A DNA stretch of 64,000 nt, taken from NCBI GenBank assembly GCA_963768225.1, contig CAVYGV010000005.1, positions 347,184 to 411,183 of the forward strand, read 5' to 3'. Shown here one piece after another: positions 510 through 28,462 of this stretch (position 1 is the stretch's first letter; each line of letters starts with the position of its first letter). This DNA comes from an uncultured Alphaproteobacteria bacterium. Lineage in GTDB: Bacteria; Pseudomonadota; Alphaproteobacteria; Rhizobiales; Xanthobacteraceae. The notes beneath the pieces are model-generated. The model ran no database searches and was not told where the DNA came from. It saw only the letters and a program-made list of their open reading frames with translations. The position numbers were made by a program, and so were the translations under genes.

Positions 510-1235
510 GTGCGTATCCGCAAAGCATTGCAAACCGCTAAGGAAACGAGTGGCCGGAGTTTTCGGTGCGCGCGACGCCGCACCGCAAAGACCGCCGACT
601 TGGCAGCGGCGCTGGCTATTGCGATTCTGGCGGTTGGCTTCGCCCAGGCCGGTCATGCAGAGGATGTGAGGAGGATTGCCGCCTCAAGGCAAGATGTTCA
701 GGCAAAGATAGGCTACTGCAAGGACTGTCACGGACCGTCGGCACAGGGCTATCGCGGATACTTTCCGATACCGCGGCTCGCGGGGCAGCAACCCGAATAT
801 TTGGAAAATCAGCTGCGAGCCTTTATCGAGCACCGGCGGACGAACAATATCATGTTCAACGTGGCGCATGCGTTGAACCCGGGAATGATGTCGGGGCTCG
901 CCGCGGAATTTAAGAAACTCGATCCCCCGCCGATCGGTGGTGCGCCGAAGGGGCTCGTGGCTGCGGGAAAGAAAATCTTTGAAGATGGAGTTCCCGACGC
1001 CAATGTTGCCGCCTGCGCCGCCTGTCACGGTCCGGAGGCTACCGGCAGCGGAGAAATTCCCCGTCTTGCCGGTCAGCTTGATCCCTACGTCATCAAGGAG
1101 CTGACGAACTGGGGGAAAGAACGAGGACAAAATCCGGCAAGACCGGATACCTCAGCCGTCATGAGCCCGGTTGCGCATAGTTTGAACAAGTCGGAAATTG
1201 AAGCCGTTGCCGCCTTCGTCAGTTATCTCAAGTGA
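510..1235 (+). CDS. Diheme c-type cytochrome with signal peptide (paralog 2 of 3)
   Basis: Two CXXCH motifs (CKDCHG, CAACHG). N-terminal hydrophobic signal AAALAIAILAVGFAQA. Strong similarity to the upstream ORF (YFPIPRLAGQQ..YLENQL..HRRTNNIMFNV). Confidence 0.85.
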   Translation: MRIRKALQTAKETSGRSFRCARRRTAKTADLAAALAIAILAVGFAQAGHAEDVRRIAASRQDVQAKIGYCKDCHGPSAQGYRGYFPIPRLAGQQPEYLENQLRAFIEHRRTNNIMFNVAHALNPGMMSGLAAEFKKLDPPPIGGAPKGLVAAGKKIFEDGVPDANVAACAACHGPEATGSGEIPRLAGQLDPYVIKELTNWGKERGQNPARPDTSAVMSPVAHSLNKSEIEAVAAFVSYLK

Positions 1236-9367: not shown

Positions 9368-13987
<4,620 letters not shown>

Positions 13988-14593
13988 CGTCCTACTCGCG
14001 ATCCTCCCGGCACCCCGACGCATGCGGCATCGGGCTCCGACAATCCACCTCTTCGCTCCTCCCTCCTATCCTCGCGCGCGGCGGATGGGACGAACGGAGC
14101 TTGCGCCCAGGGGCGAGTTACACTTATTGGAGGCAACCTTTGTGCCGCTTATGCGGCCGCTGGTTGCTTGTTCTTGCCGCCGCCCGGCGCGCCCTCGCCA
14201 CCAGCGGCTGACCCCCTGCGTCTCGTCGGATTTCCCAACCGCGCCTCGTGGGGTCACCAATTGGGACAGCAATGCTGTCCTATGCAGAACATGGCAAATT
14301 CTGCAATCCAATACAAGCGCCCACCCCTTACCTTTCGCTCCCCGCATGAAGGGTCGAGAGGAAAAGGAGACGAAAAGCGCTACCAAGCCCCGGTCGCTGC
14401 CGATTTTGCTAACGTTCCGCAGCTGAAGTGGATCATGGGACGGCCTTTCGTGCAATGGGCGCAGAGACGCGACGCTCCCGCTTGTGTGCAGCCCTGCCGA
14501 ACGTGCGGGGAGACGGGCCAACTCGATCGAACGCTGGTCCGGTCGGTTGCTTAGTCGCGCGGCAGGTACGGCCCGATCTGAGAGTCAGGATTG

Positions 14594-15085
14594 TCAGTCG
14601 ATCTCCGCCAGTTCCATCCAAGGCAGCGCCTCGACGGCGCACGGCCCGGTCGCCCAAATCACCAGGCACGGAACCCGCGAGGCAGAAAATCCAAGTCGCA
14701 AACTGATGCGCCGCCAAATTTCGCCGGCGTCCACTGGCAACGAGGGATAGTCGCGCAGGATGTGCCCGCGATAGACGAAGAACTCCCTGGCGTTGTCAGG
14801 CTCGCGGATGCGCATGGCTTGAAGATTTTCGCCGTCCAAGTCGACATTTTCGACATGGAGTTGGCAATCGTTCTTGCGGCCGAGAGAACCGTGTCCGAAT
14901 GCGCCGGGGTTCACCGCAAATCCCTGGCGCGCAAGCCAGTTTTCAATGGTTTGGTCGAGGCCGATGCCGGTAGGTCGCGGAGCTTCCTTCGGCCCGGTCG
15001 ATTTCAATGCGATCGTCGCCGCGAAAACGGCTGCGACGACACCCAATTTAAGTGCGCGCAAAAAGGTCACGACGATGTCCGGCAA
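14594..15085 (-). CDS. Hypothetical N-terminally membrane-anchored protein encoded directly after the exosortase-like gene; possible accessory partner
   Basis: 163-aa ORF with one N-terminal hydrophobic helix (LKLGVVAAVFAATIAL). It overlaps or abuts the stop of the upstream gene (TAA-A-TTG at 15050-15044). The start codon is ambiguous (TTG 15085, GTG 15070 or TTG 15046). I recognise no family signature. Confidence 0.45.
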   Translation of the reverse strand: MPDIVVTFLRALKLGVVAAVFAATIALKSTGPKEAPRPTGIGLDQTIENWLARQGFAVNPGAFGHGSLGRKNDCQLHVENVDLDGENLQAMRIREPDNAREFFVYRGHILRDYPSLPVDAGEIWRRISLRLGFSASRVPCLVIWATGPCAVEALPWMELAEID

Positions 15086-15929
15086 CGCAAATCAGCACGA
15101 TTAATATCAGGGTCAACTGGCCGGCAATCATGGCCCCGATTGGCCCGTGAACCAGTTCGAAGTTCCGCGGATCGGCAGCCATCAAGCTCAGGCGACCCAG
15201 ATTGATGGCGAATGCCGAAGCGATTGCGGCTGCGCACCATACCGTGTCTGTCATTCGCCAAGGTCGTCCGAGCGCGCGGTTCGTAGCAACCCAAGCAACC
15301 GCGGCCTGGGACATGTTATGGAATGACGAGCAAGCTGCAAATATTTGCAGGACGCGGCCGTCGCGCGGGTACAAAATGACGTTGTCACTATACGGCACAT
15401 GCAAAAGCGTACCGACCAGGAAGGCATCGACCTTGAGCAGCGGTGCGCCAGCGTATTGCAGAAACAGAGGACCCCAGAACACCGGCGCGGCGAGCGCGGC
15501 GAATACGGGCGCAGCTCGGCGCAAAGGACTGCCGATGGAGCTGGTCCTGAAGACGTAAAAGGCAAGTCCGCTCAGACAGATCCAGCTGAGCGAAGTTACC
15601 GGTACGGCAATGAGGAGAACAGCGACAGCCGCCAGCGCCGCGTCGCCGGAACGGATCGGCCGCGCGGCGGCCGGCTCCATCGTTATCGCGCAGGCTGCAA
15701 TCCAGGCCGCCCAGACGATGGCGCTGATCCCGAACGTGTTAGCCAAAGCCGTCCAAAGGCCCAGATCGATGATGCTCGCCGATATATACGGGATCAATCC
15801 GTTGGCGGAGGCGAGGATGAGCAGCGCAGCGAGCAACTGCTCGCGCGTCGCGAATGTCGACGACGTCGTTTCGTTGTCGGCGGGCGGAATGAGACCGGTT
15901 TCGCGACTCGCCGCGACGCGGAAGGACAA
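15048..15929 (-). CDS. Exosortase/archaeosortase-family polytopic membrane protein (putative transpeptidase)
   Basis: Multi-TM protein with the family's Cys...Arg...His arrangement: IFAACSSFHN, then AINLGRLSL about 46 residues later, then LVHGPIGAMIAG 15 residues after that. It lies immediately downstream of two PEP-CTERM-like mini-genes. The start is uncertain. TTG at 15929 is the first in-frame start after the upstream stop. The ORF-track ATG at 16040 overlaps the small gene in another frame. Confidence 0.6.
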   Translation of the reverse strand: MSFRVAASRETGLIPPADNETTSSTFATREQLLAALLILASANGLIPYISASIIDLGLWTALANTFGISAIVWAAWIAACAITMEPAAARPIRSGDAALAAVAVLLIAVPVTSLSWICLSGLAFYVFRTSSIGSPLRRAAPVFAALAAPVFWGPLFLQYAGAPLLKVDAFLVGTLLHVPYSDNVILYPRDGRVLQIFAACSSFHNMSQAAVAWVATNRALGRPWRMTDTVWCAAAIASAFAINLGRLSLMAADPRNFELVHGPIGAMIAGQLTLILIVLICVAGHRRDLFART

Positions 15930-15939
15930 GCCGCGCGAC

Positions 15940-16101
15940 CTAGCAGCGCAGCGCGCGGACCGCGAAATAGACGCCGGCAAGAACTGCCGCTGCCGGCAGC
16001 CCGACCCCCGCAATGGGGCCCGGCGCCGCACTCCCCGCATAGACAGGTTCAGCAGCGAGAACCAGCATGGCCATTCCCAGCAGCGCTGTCATCATTCGCA
16101 T
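15940..16101 (-). CDS. 53-aa pre-peptide: signal peptide plus PEP-CTERM-like (PGP-TM-RALRC) sorting signal, copy A (not in the ORF track)
   Basis: Hand translation: MRMMTALLGMAMLVLAAEPVYAGSAAPGPIAGVGLPAAAVLAGVYFAVRALRC*. GGGGA lies 7 nt upstream of the ATG. A paralog sits 287 bp away, and the conserved blocks differ only by synonymous changes. Confidence 0.65.
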   Translation of the reverse strand: MRMMTALLGMAMLVLAAEPVYAGSAAPGPIAGVGLPAAAVLAGVYFAVRALRC

Positions 16102-16137
16102 GGTGCGATCCCCACCGGTAGAATATCAATGTTATCC

Positions 16138-16166
16138 AAGTTATCTTCGACCGAGTGACCGGTCAA
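16138..16166 (-). promoter_or_regulatory. Candidate sigma70-type promoter for small gene copy A
   Basis: Minus strand TTGACC-N17-TAACTT. The equivalent element is conserved in copy B. Confidence 0.3.
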
Positions 16167-16226
16167 CGCGTGTGAATGTCATCATTGCGCAACCGAGCCG
16201 ATGGACTGGCCGACAAGCCACGCGGC

Positions 16227-16388
16227 CTAACGGCGCAACGCGCGGACCGCGAAATAGACACCGGCAAGAACCGCCGCCGCCGGAAGTCCGACCCCCGCAA
16301 TCGGACCCGGAGCGCCGACTCCCGCATAGACCGGTTCAGCGGCAAAGACGAGCGTGGCAATCCCTAATAACGCAATCCTTATTCCCAT
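16227..16388 (-). CDS. 53-aa pre-peptide: signal peptide plus PEP-CTERM-like (PGP-TM-RALRR) sorting signal, copy B (not in the ORF track)
   Basis: Hand translation: MGIRIALLGIATLVFAAEPVYAGVGAPGPIAGVGLPAAAVLAGVYFAVRALRR*. Same GGGGA-N7-ATG context. The 26 codons PGP...LR are identical in protein to copy A despite 8 nucleotide differences. Confidence 0.65.
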   Translation of the reverse strand: MGIRIALLGIATLVFAAEPVYAGVGAPGPIAGVGLPAAAVLAGVYFAVRALRR

Positions 16389-16425
16389 GGTGCGATCCCC
16401 ACCGGTAGAATATCAATATCTTTCC

Positions 16426-16454
16426 ACGTTACCTTCGACCGAGTGAACGGTCAA
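16426..16454 (-). promoter_or_regulatory. Candidate sigma70-type promoter for small gene copy B
   Basis: Minus strand TTGACC-N17-TAACGT. The position matches the copy A element. Confidence 0.3.
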
Positions 16455-16488
16455 CGCGCGTGAATGTCATCATTGTGAAACCGAGCCG

Positions 16489-17379
16489 ATGGACTGGCCG
16501 ACGATCAGACACTGGCTGCTCCCCTGGACCGACAGCGATGACGCCTGGGTGAGCGTCGTTTTCTGGCTGGGACTTTTCAGCATCGGCGGATTGGAACTGC
16601 TCGTGCCAGTGCATCGAAATAGCCGGCGTGAGCGGCGCTGGCCCGCTAATTTTGGTTTGGGATTGATCAACCTCACTTTGTTGTCGCTGCTGCCGGCGTC
16701 CAGCGTGTTGGCCGCGGTGTGGGCCCAGAGCCATGGCGTGGGGCTGTTGAACTGGCTGCGCGTGCCGTGGATTGAGGCTACCCTCGCTACGATCGCGATC
16801 CGCAGCTTCTCCTCTTATGCGATGCATGTCGTGCTGCACCATGTAGACTTCCTTTGGCGCATCCACCGCGTTCATCACTTCGATATGCAGGTGGATGTAT
16901 CGACAGGCCTGCGCACGCATCCGTTCGAATATGCGCTCGCCTTCTTCCTGGAGCTGACGCTTGCGGTCGCCTTCGGTCTCTTACCTTGGGCGGTATTGTG
17001 CTATGATTTGGCGGACTCGCTCTTTGCGTTTCTCTCGCACGCAAATATTCGCGTCCCGGCGCTGCTGGACCGCCTGTTACGCCTCCTGATCGTGACTCCG
17101 GCCCTGCATGCGATGCATCACTCGTCATGGCGTCCCGAGACGGACAGCAATTTCGGAACTGTTTTGACTTTGTGGGATCGTATTTTCCGCACTTATCGCG
17201 ATCCGCAAGTCGATCGACGCGGCGACCTGCAGTTCGGTTTGTCGGACGTCCGCGATGAACGTACGGCGGACCTCTGGTGGCAGTTGAAATCGCCTCTGGT
17301 GAAGTTCGCGCCCGTCCAATCAGCTGTACCGGAGCACGAAATTACCGATACTCCGCGAACGCCGGTGGCAGTCGAATAA
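16489..17379 (+). CDS. Fatty acid hydroxylase / sterol desaturase family membrane protein
   Basis: Histidine boxes HVVLHHVDFLWRIHRVHH and PALHAMHH. N-terminal TM segments. Divergent from the small-gene pair. Confidence 0.8.
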   Translation: MDWPTIRHWLLPWTDSDDAWVSVVFWLGLFSIGGLELLVPVHRNSRRERRWPANFGLGLINLTLLSLLPASSVLAAVWAQSHGVGLLNWLRVPWIEATLATIAIRSFSSYAMHVVLHHVDFLWRIHRVHHFDMQVDVSTGLRTHPFEYALAFFLELTLAVAFGLLPWAVLCYDLADSLFAFLSHANIRVPALLDRLLRLLIVTPALHAMHHSSWRPETDSNFGTVLTLWDRIFRTYRDPQVDRRGDLQFGLSDVRDERTADLWWQLKSPLVKFAPVQSAVPEHEITDTPRTPVAVE

Positions 17380-28335: not shown

Positions 28336-28432
28336 TGCGGTAGCGAGAGGTTCCCTCCCGTTACCGTCGCCCTCCTTGGGCGTTTCCTCCCTAGACTTGG
28401 GCCGCTCCCGCAAGGTGAGCGGCCCTTTTTCT
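28336..28432 (+). ncRNA. Candidate trans-acting sRNA with three CCUCC(C) anti-Shine-Dalgarno-like motifs
   Basis: CTTGTA-N17-TATGTT promoter-like element at 28299-28327. Hairpins follow, including CGCCC-UCCUU-GGGCG. A single-stranded UUUCCUCCCUA stretch is present. Strong terminator GGGCCGCUC-N9-GAGCGGCCC plus UUUUU (28398-28429). It runs opposite to both flanking genes and has no plausible ORF. Confidence 0.5.
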
Positions 28433-28462
28433 TGCCCGGTTCCTTGGCCGAGGAATTCGGCG

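Follow-up and report, generated by a model that had tools for sequence, protein, structure and literature searches.

What would an exosortase-type enzyme do with a substrate that carries almost nothing to sort? The question is raised by a locus from an uncultured alphaproteobacterium of the Xanthobacteraceae (GenBank assembly GCA_963768225.1, contig CAVYGV010000005.1, positions 347,184 to 411,183 of the forward strand), a stretch of 64,000 nucleotides that we call the window and number from its first letter. Two tandem genes of 53 codons on its minus strand encode pre-peptides made up of little more than a predicted signal peptide joined to a C-terminal tag, and beside them lies a gene for a polytopic membrane protein of the exosortase/archaeosortase family. 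Our reading is that the peptides are probably dedicated substrates of this adjacent enzyme, and they stand at the cargo-less extreme of the substrate range of a tag that is also found on much larger open reading frames (ORFs). The features on which this answer turns are as follows.

16227–16388, minus strand: pre-peptide gene copy B, 53 amino acids (aa), ATG start, reading MGIRIALLGIATLVFAAEPVYA followed by GVGA-PGPIAGVGLPAAAVLAGVYFAV-RALRR; its orthologue P0001 is 96% identical.
15940–16101, minus strand: pre-peptide gene copy A, 53 aa, ATG start, reading MRMMTALLGMAMLVLAAEPVYA followed by GSAA-PGPIAGVGLPAAAVLAGVYFAV-RALRC; its orthologue is P0002.
15925–16502: tandem direct repeat with a unit of 287–288 bp, two copies and the start of a third (D1 82% and D2 93% identical).
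15048–15932, minus strand: exosortase/archaeosortase-family polytopic membrane protein, 294 aa, with a TTG start 8 nt past the stop of copy A.

Are two such short ORFs, lying in a repeat, genes at all? The original prediction had picked them out on the minus strand of the tandem repeat, and their coordinates and translations are confirmed. It had also called them unannotated, which is true of the ORF list used there, with its cut-off of 60 aa, but not of public metagenomes, in which gene callers do predict orthologues, labelled 'hypothetical protein'. Both ORFs are coding genes under purifying selection, which the tandem repeat generated or maintains. Between the copies, 35 of 162 nucleotides are different, 23 of these at third codon positions. 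Across codons 27–52 (PGP...LR), all eight nucleotide differences are synonymous (non-synonymous rate dN 0, synonymous rate dS 0.43), as are three more in the AAEPVYAG block, so a recount bears out the tallies first reported; with some 31% of sites synonymous, chance alone would give 8/8 at a probability of 9e-5 and 11/11 at 2e-6. Over the whole gene, dN is 0.10 and dS 0.90, with non-synonymous changes limited to codons 2–5, 10, 12 and 15 (the n and h regions of the signal peptide), 24–25 (the linker) and 53. The last of these (15943–15945 in copy A) encodes Cys in copy A (..RALRC) and a basic residue in copy B and most family members; the terminal Cys is kept in orthologue P0002, from locus L005.

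Between the window and L005, a near-identical relative, the tag of the peptide genes has undergone synonymous changes only, whereas each paralogue has a non-synonymous change at codon 25, in the middle of the linker (A25T in copy A, at 16027–16029, and G25S in copy B, at 16314–16316). The comparison hints that the linker is under relaxed or diversifying selection. Each window ORF is preceded by a Shine-Dalgarno (SD)-like GGTGGGGA, with 7 nt between its end and the ATG, and G-rich SD-like sequences lie upstream of every copy in the related loci L001, L002 and L007.

The peptides belong to a large family. Single-sequence searches with the window peptides returned only near-identical copies and two proteins (71 and 81 aa) that share APGPIAGVGLP. 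A profile (A3) built from an alignment of 12 small-ORF peptides that adjoin homologues of the membrane enzyme gave at least 2155 family matches, copy B among them. The best 120 of these at least 2155 matches are almost all 56–60 aa long, and the few longer entries are calls extended upstream of the internal Met at which the conserved peptide begins. Protein-level homologues at about 50% identity have unrelated DNA.

What do these peptides look like? Copy B consists of a signal peptide, a 4-residue linker, a P-G-P motif (P-A-P in variants of the family) with a 19-residue helix, and a basic tail. Over 121 peptides, the layout opens with an n-region that has a single basic residue and goes on to a hydrophobic core some 12 residues long, the c-region P-A-F-A (in both window peptides P-V-Y-A), the linker and PGPIAGIGLPALALIGGAYWVGRKLFARKK; both the N-terminal signal peptide and the tripartite C-terminal architecture can be read from the sequences. 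In the 12-sequence alignment, the columns without variation read PGPxxGxGLPxxAxxxGxY. The linker of the 121 peptides is 4–6 residues long (5 in 74), begins with Gly in 92 and ends with Ala or Val in 104; 83% of its residues are A, G, P, V, T or S, Lys and Arg are absent, and no part of the peptide varies more than the middle of this linker, at 3.2–3.5 bits. From PGP on, twenty positions have an entropy of just 0–0.9 bits.

Judged from the n, h and c regions and the −3/−1 rule, signal-peptidase cleavage more likely falls after VYA than after VLA or VFA, the sites proposed originally, because the P-A-F-A or P-V-Y-A c-region is conserved family-wide. Cleavage there would leave not 10–13 residues before PGP but a stub of four, GSAA or GVGA. 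The description of the products as almost cargo-less pre-peptides stands, with a predicted stub even shorter than first proposed.

The tag itself matched no described sorting signal. The PEP-CTERM model TIGR02595 (cut-off 16 bits) matched neither the window peptides at E ≤ 1 nor the 12 family peptides at E ≤ 10, Pfam and NCBIfam sorting-domain models gave no meaningful match to the peptides, and a full-text search of the available literature for the motif strings and for 'PGP-CTERM' found nothing. Membership in PEP-CTERM is rejected, as TIGR02595 does not match and the motif is PGP rather than PEP; of the earlier label 'PEP-CTERM-like', the three-part build of motif, 19-residue helix and basic tail stands, although the PEP-CTERM hidden Markov model (HMM) does not match.

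Is the neighbour an exosortase-type enzyme? Pfam gave no match to the window protein, and its only matches, all below threshold, were to exosortase-family models, chiefly TIGR04178. Of 17 close relatives, 15 match TIGR04178 at E ≤ 0.1 (the best at 4e-5) and one matches PF09721 (9.6e-6); among ten sampled representatives, P0032, P0150 and P0169 exceed the TIGR04178 cut-off, with 29.0, 26.9 and 25.2 bits. Invariant in these 17 relatives are C201 (within C-S-S), N244-x-x-R247, H262, P111, W153 and N184, and C201, R247 and H262 are invariant across 60 diverse representatives too; exosortases and archaeosortases are proposed to use Cys, Arg and His as their catalytic triad (Haft 2023 preprint). An AlphaFold2 (AF2) model, with a mean predicted local distance difference test score (pLDDT) of 89.7 and a predicted template-modelling score (pTM) of 0.83, has 11 helices and one short beta-hairpin right before Cys201, a polytopic, deeply membrane-embedded build like that of the family, which has about eight transmembrane (TM) helices. 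The AF2 helices, read with the positive-inside rule, would place the loop 221–226 (NRALGRPWR) and the C-terminal HRRDLFART in the cytoplasm and C201, R247 and H262 at the periplasmic face; with the basic tail of the substrate taken as cytoplasmic, the PGP motif would lie level with these residues.

By sequence, the enzyme belongs to a large unnamed clade. A profile search, run exhaustively, gave 1306 cluster representatives (50% identity) at E ≤ 1e-3, 474 of them at E ≤ 1e-30. None of the named subfamily models (XrtA–X, ArtA–F, CrtA–C) reaches its cut-off: ArtD gives 15–21 bits against 125, XrtP 21.9 against 200 and XrtX 18.4 against 170, and XrtS, XrtO, CrtA, CrtC and ArtE match single members only, by E-value. 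With the best scores so far below the model cut-offs, membership in any named Xrt or Art subfamily is rejected.

If peptides and enzyme form a system, their genes should travel together, and they do, in company with two further genes.

14594–15085, minus strand: partner protein of about 163 aa, with a 38-nt overlap between its start and the end of the sortase-like gene.
16489–17379, plus strand: divergent membrane hydroxylase/desaturase of the fatty-acid-hydroxylase superfamily, 296 aa (PF04116, 88.5 bits).

The cassette comprises the divergent FA_hydroxylase gene, the peptide array, the exosortase/archaeosortase-family protein (about 280 aa) and the partner (about 160 aa), and spans about 2.8 kb in the window. 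Hydroxylase, array and sortase-like gene occur together in 10/10 independent mini-peptide loci (the window, L001, L002, L005, L007, L008, L009, L011, L092 and L093; L003, L004, L006 and L010 duplicate four of these and were left out of the count). All ten have a same-strand array of 2, 3, 4 or 7 peptide copies between the divergent hydroxylase and the sortase-like gene, and the partner gene comes next wherever downstream sequence is available (L093 stops at the enzyme gene). The enzymes of L001, L002 and L007, in which identity was measured, are 45–58% identical to that of the window; in L008 the enzyme gene is present but frameshifted, probably through assembly errors. A genome scan with alignment A2 found one metagenome-assembled genome (MAG), its two search patterns being probably too narrow. 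Peptide copies are more alike within a locus than between loci, which argues for repeated local duplication or gene conversion. The expectation that homologous small ORFs would sit beside exosortase homologues in relatives thus holds in every independent locus, and two conserved components that the original prediction did not mention, the partner and the hydroxylase, join them.

One of these loci, L007, holds a second pair of mini pre-peptide genes (507–677 and 801–1043, minus strand) with the variant tag ..TPAPLLGVGLPAIAAVGGVLLGSRLFKRK, in which PAP replaces PGP. The pair sits past the far end of the hydroxylase gene, and the same MAG locus has four PGP-type copies.

Is the conserved C-terminal segment a sorting tag or simply a part of this peptide? 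Evidence comes from a sister clade, a distant subclade of the enzyme that has the motif CSSLAN and shares about 30% identity with the window protein; a metagenome scan for it gave 80 loci. Scanning these with the pattern [GA]AP[GA]P[IV][AV]G[AVG]GLP...RRRK, we found that 17 of the 21 loci of at least 5 kb carry, within 2.5 kb, one or more ORFs ending GAPGPIAGAGLP...RRRK, with none in a reversed-DNA control; over all 80 loci the corresponding count is 38. Adjacency of the enzyme to proteins with a cognate C-terminal tripartite signal thus extends from 10/10 mini-peptide loci to 17/21 of these sister-clade loci. The tag-bearing ORFs, 63–320 codons long, are unrelated to one another in their N-terminal parts, with cargo that reaches about 290 residues, examples being those of 320 codons in L061 and 249 codons in L087, a family of 182–191 codons with a double-Cys motif, and minis of about 75 aa with C-N-G-x-G-x-C. 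They share no Pfam or NCBIfam domain, and one sister-clade protein scores 11.5 bits against PEP-CTERM TIGR02595, below its cut-off of 16. Only mini-peptides were seen in the window's own subclade. A tag common to otherwise dissimilar proteins, with an enzyme nearby, is the operational definition of sorting signals, the 'dedicated system' included (Haft 2023 preprint). As it sits on unrelated ORFs encoded beside the enzyme, PGPxxGxGLPxxAxxxGxY with its basic tail is, by this sequence-based definition, a genuine and undescribed sorting signal. The adjacency in all ten mini-peptide loci supports the earlier idea of a minimal, dedicated exosortase system.

Among the sister substrates we also observed a group of about 75–85 aa with A-C-N-G-x-G-x-C-x-x-A-P-G-H/Q... 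(L028 1884–2144, L029 47–292, and L035, L043, L053 and L072). Its short Cys-rich cargo follows the signal peptide directly and could be a metal-binding or disulfide-looped mini-domain.

How are the partner and the hydroxylase tied to the enzyme and its substrates? A partner homologue lies directly downstream of the enzyme gene, on the same strand, in 60/60 sister-clade loci with enough sequence, and P0030, P0032 and P0063 (453–462 aa) are natural fusions in which it forms the C-terminal part of the enzyme chain; by the Rosetta-stone argument, these are evidence that the two act together. In the partner alignment (A7), a TM helix at the N-terminus is followed at once by an invariant Lys; two Cys are likewise invariant, and an LPW motif lies at the C-terminus. 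The two Cys suggest a disulfide, and with it a periplasmic location for the domain. Searches of Pfam and NCBIfam with the window protein and with 21 homologues at E ≤ 1 found no family match, EpsI/DUF3485 included, and a single-sequence structure prediction reached a pLDDT of 51.6, insufficient for searching by fold.

The hydroxylase goes with the cargo-less arrays. It stands beside the array in all ten mini-peptide loci, and among the 80 sister loci only L078 and L088 have it, both with tandem small-cargo peptides (minimal linkers in L078, linkers of 6 and 13 residues in L088). It was also considered as the ornithine-lipid hydroxylase OlsE (NF052566), an identity rejected at 53.1 bits against a cut-off of 475.

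How, then, might the cassette work? Each 53-aa product would insert into the inner membrane as a helical hairpin, with its N-terminal MGIR and C-terminal RALRR in the cytoplasm, as the distribution of charges suggests. Signal peptidase I would cut after P-V-Y-A, the site favoured by the conserved c-region, to give a 31-residue single-pass peptide with a periplasmic stub, GVGA or GSAA, before PGP. The enzyme, with which the peptides are paired in genomes, would recognise PGPxxGxGLPxxAxxxGxY at the outer face of the membrane, near C201, R247 and H262, and by analogy would cleave in or near PGP, after which the conserved helix would be discarded. An N-terminal peptide of about 7–8 residues, hypervariable in its middle, may then be transferred to an acceptor in the membrane or envelope, by analogy with archaeosortase A and sortases. 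The partner, obligately paired with the enzyme and in places fused to it, would act alongside it; the hydroxylase, given its association with cargo-less arrays, might modify the acceptor lipid or the peptide; and with 2–7 genes per array the short peptide would be made abundantly and in several sequence variants. The proposal of a lipid-transfer step draws on archaeosortase A (ArtA), whose removal of the C-terminal helix is described as coupled to lipid attachment (Haft 2023 preprint; see also PMC7157517). A lipid-linked peptide as the final product, suggested by this analogy, is a tentative idea that we consider rather doubtful.

Several points weigh against a role of the peptides as dedicated, processed substrates. 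First, their expression, signal-peptide cleavage and sortase cleavage are predictions only, and 'dedicated' is a word justified by adjacency only. Second, the helix to be discarded is the most conserved part and the part to be delivered the most variable, a pattern that fits the helix as the functional product too; to our knowledge, moreover, 7–8 small uncharged residues are without precedent as 'sorted' cargo. Finally, the assignment of the enzyme is distant: the window protein scores 18.5 bits (E 0.0019) against TIGR04178, whose cut-off is 23, a search of PDB sequences with the profile of the enzyme returned nothing above noise (E about 1.5) and hence no solved homologue, and a Foldseek search of the AF2 model against the PDB gave no match at E ≤ 0.001.

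The explanation that best survives beside a sorted substrate is that the membrane peptide itself, of 31–36 residues, is the functional product, either uncleaved or as an active C-terminal fragment, a reading that we hold to be possible but unlikely; we give the same low standing to its regulatory form, in which the peptide would bind or control the complex of enzyme, partner and hydroxylase as a subunit, pseudo-substrate or inhibitor. The near-invariance of the twenty positions from PGP on, beside the most variable linker, and the dN of 0 over the helix are what a functional helix would be expected to show, and multi-copy arrays would suit a stoichiometric structural component. Against this, the sister clade has the same tag on unrelated cargo as large as about 290 residues, where it behaves like an address label that can be taken off, and it is equally conserved there, so that high conservation is a property of the tag and not of the mini-peptides; the enzyme, for its part, retains the invariant Cys, Arg and His expected of a working protease or transpeptidase.

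The enzyme might instead make a small molecule, with the excised GxxxAPGP ligated to a hydroxylase-modified lipid to form a peptidolipid, or turned into a head-to-tail cyclic peptide or a polymer, an outcome that we judge unlikely. If true, this would be the first exosortase acting as a maturase of the type seen for ribosomally synthesized and post-translationally modified peptides (RiPPs), and the locus would provide a natural minimal substrate that reveals exosortase acceptor chemistry. Less plausible still, and very unlikely in our estimation, is a full RiPP-like pathway in which the Sec signal would serve as leader, the PGP helix as follower and the enzyme as a transpeptidase using the new N-terminal Gly, with cyclic octapeptides (cyclo-GxxxAPGP, joined head to tail) or concatenated Gly/Pro/Ala-rich polymers as products. 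Tandem multi-copy precursor genes are typical of multi-core RiPP families, and the loci resemble them in their 2–7 precursor genes and in a core that is hypervariable in sequence but fixed in length (5 residues in 74/121) and lies between conserved flanks. The core lacks charged residues, with A, G, P, V, T and S making up 83% of it, Gly follows the predicted signal-peptidase site in 92/121 peptides, and linker codon 25 is non-synonymous in both copies between the window and L005. However, signal-peptidase sites and short periplasmic loops commonly have Gly at +1 and small residues, and variability of the linker may be plain weak constraint. Nor is any exosortase-family enzyme known to cyclise or polymerise, and the cassette contains no conserved exporter or immunity gene.

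Decay is a poorer explanation again. That the small ORFs are functionless remnants of larger tag-bearing proteins would account for the larger tag-bearing ORFs in the same position of sister-clade loci, but it is highly improbable and strongly disfavoured by the purifying selection on the ORFs, by their constant length and anatomy over more than 100 distinct family members, by their own ribosome-binding sites (RBSs) and repeated amplification to 2–7 copies, and by a strict linkage with the hydroxylase gene, which is absent from cargo-bearing loci. Chance frames in a non-coding tandem repeat of regulatory or structural DNA or RNA, a reading prompted by the repeat around the ORFs and by upstream DNA conserved even better than they are, have next to no probability and are refuted by frame-respecting substitutions (23/35 differences at third positions, 11/11 synonymous in the conserved blocks) and by protein homologues about 50% identical with unrelated DNA, the repeat showing neither an Rfam match nor an unusual RNA fold.

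That conserved upstream DNA has features of its own.

16389–16488: intergenic region between copy B (minus strand) and the hydroxylase gene (plus strand), the source copy of the duplicated upstream element and presumably a bidirectional promoter region.
16102–16226, minus strand: upstream region of copy A, a duplicate of the intergenic promoter/RBS region, with the SD-like GGTGGGGA.

The regions upstream of copies A and B are 92% identical. Their non-coding stretch (16102–16215 against 16389–16502) shows 9 differences in 113 nt, as against 23 in the 53 third codon positions of the peptide genes (Fisher p = 2.4e-7), and it is better conserved than the synonymous sites of the ORFs in the close relative L005 too. 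It would be a promoter or operator to which a protein binds, or else a tract of recent gene conversion. By eye, TTGACC-N17-TAACTT upstream of copy A is a candidate promoter, a weak suggestion; a promoter scan found no sigma-70-like site on the minus strand. An RNA element at the locus is unsupported, as Rfam gave no match at E ≤ 1 and the conserved upstream 114 nt fold no better than shuffled sequences (z = 0.25). The repeat unit runs 14 nt into the hydroxylase ORF (ATGGACTGGCCGAC; 16489–16502 against 16201–16214), and a dead copy of the hydroxylase start therefore sits between copies A and B; the duplication thus took in the whole bidirectional intergenic region.

Outside the cassette, the neighbourhood is more variable. 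The gene downstream of the partner in the window is listed here.

9368–14023: gltB, downstream neighbour of the partner gene.

Lipid or envelope genes lie near some cassettes but not all (L001 9097–12625; L011 7472–7945): LPG_synthase_TM, an amine oxidase-like gene, a family-2 glycosyltransferase and Acyl_transf_3, none of them a constant neighbour from locus to locus. Elsewhere in the window, at 28362–28440 on the plus strand, lies the suhB/mmgR small RNA RF00519, which scores 70.1 bits (gathering score 41); this regulatory RNA of alphaproteobacteria marks the organism as one of them.

How does the cassette compare with known systems? With PEP-CTERM and its exosortases (XrtA, XrtB and other Xrt enzymes) it shares a substrate with a signal peptide, Pro-containing motif, TM helix and basic tail, and a polytopic enzyme with conserved Cys, Arg and His, in which the TIGR04178 signature region is matched, below the cut-off in the window protein itself. 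It differs in its motif, PGPxxGxGLP, in the lack of a match to the PEP-CTERM HMM or of any Xrt subfamily model at cut-off, in its setting outside an exopolysaccharide (EPS) locus, in cargo-less substrates arrayed in tandem beside the enzyme, and in the obligatory, unrelated partner and the lipid-type hydroxylase. PGF-CTERM and archaeosortase A of Haloferax volcanii offer the same enzyme superfamily and a Pro-Gly-x motif at the membrane interface. That system, however, is archaeal, carries large S-layer glycoprotein cargo and pairs one enzyme with many substrates, whereas the system described here is bacterial, cargo-less and locally encoded; the ArtD and ArtE models match the enzyme only below threshold, and membership of the peptides in PGF-CTERM is rejected.

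JDVT-CTERM and MrtJ resemble the cassette in that substrate and sorting enzyme come from consecutive genes, which is a criterion for dedicated systems (Haft 2023 preprint). MrtJ, though, is a glutamic intramembrane protease of the CPBP/Rce1 type and not an exosortase, and its substrate has real cargo and an invariant Cys, whereas the substrate gene here is present at 2–7 copies. EpsI is a protein of about 200 aa with a TM anchor and a periplasmic domain, sometimes fused to the C-terminus of an exosortase; the partner is like it in position, architecture and tendency to fuse to the enzyme C-terminus, but has no detectable sequence similarity to it. The likeness to multi-copy RiPP precursors such as those of cyanobactins, orbitides and amatoxin (MSDIN) is a functional analogy only, built on a fixed-length hypervariable core and tandem genes; the leader here is a Sec-type signal peptide, the follower is a membrane helix and a known maturase family is absent.

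A sorting tag paired with an exosortase-family enzyme is thus a known kind of system; what is new here is the tag, the enzyme clade, the obligatory partner and the tandem substrates, made of signal and tag only, that are linked to a hydroxylase. The analysis defines three families undescribed in Pfam and NCBIfam: the tag, the enzyme clade and the partner family. It also shows that thousands of 'hypothetical' genes of about 58 codons in environmental metagenomes form one coherent, selected family. Exosortases are widespread, and both their acceptor and their status as one-step transpeptidases are unresolved (Haft 2023 preprint). To the acceptor question this locus brings a naturally minimal substrate: as the part predicted to be transferred is just 7–8 residues or so, an attached moiety would be easy to see by mass spectrometry, and the candidate accessory genes, for the partner and the hydroxylase, all lie within one compact cassette of about 2.8 kb. 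The system may therefore be the simplest in which to learn what exosortase-type enzymes attach their substrates to.

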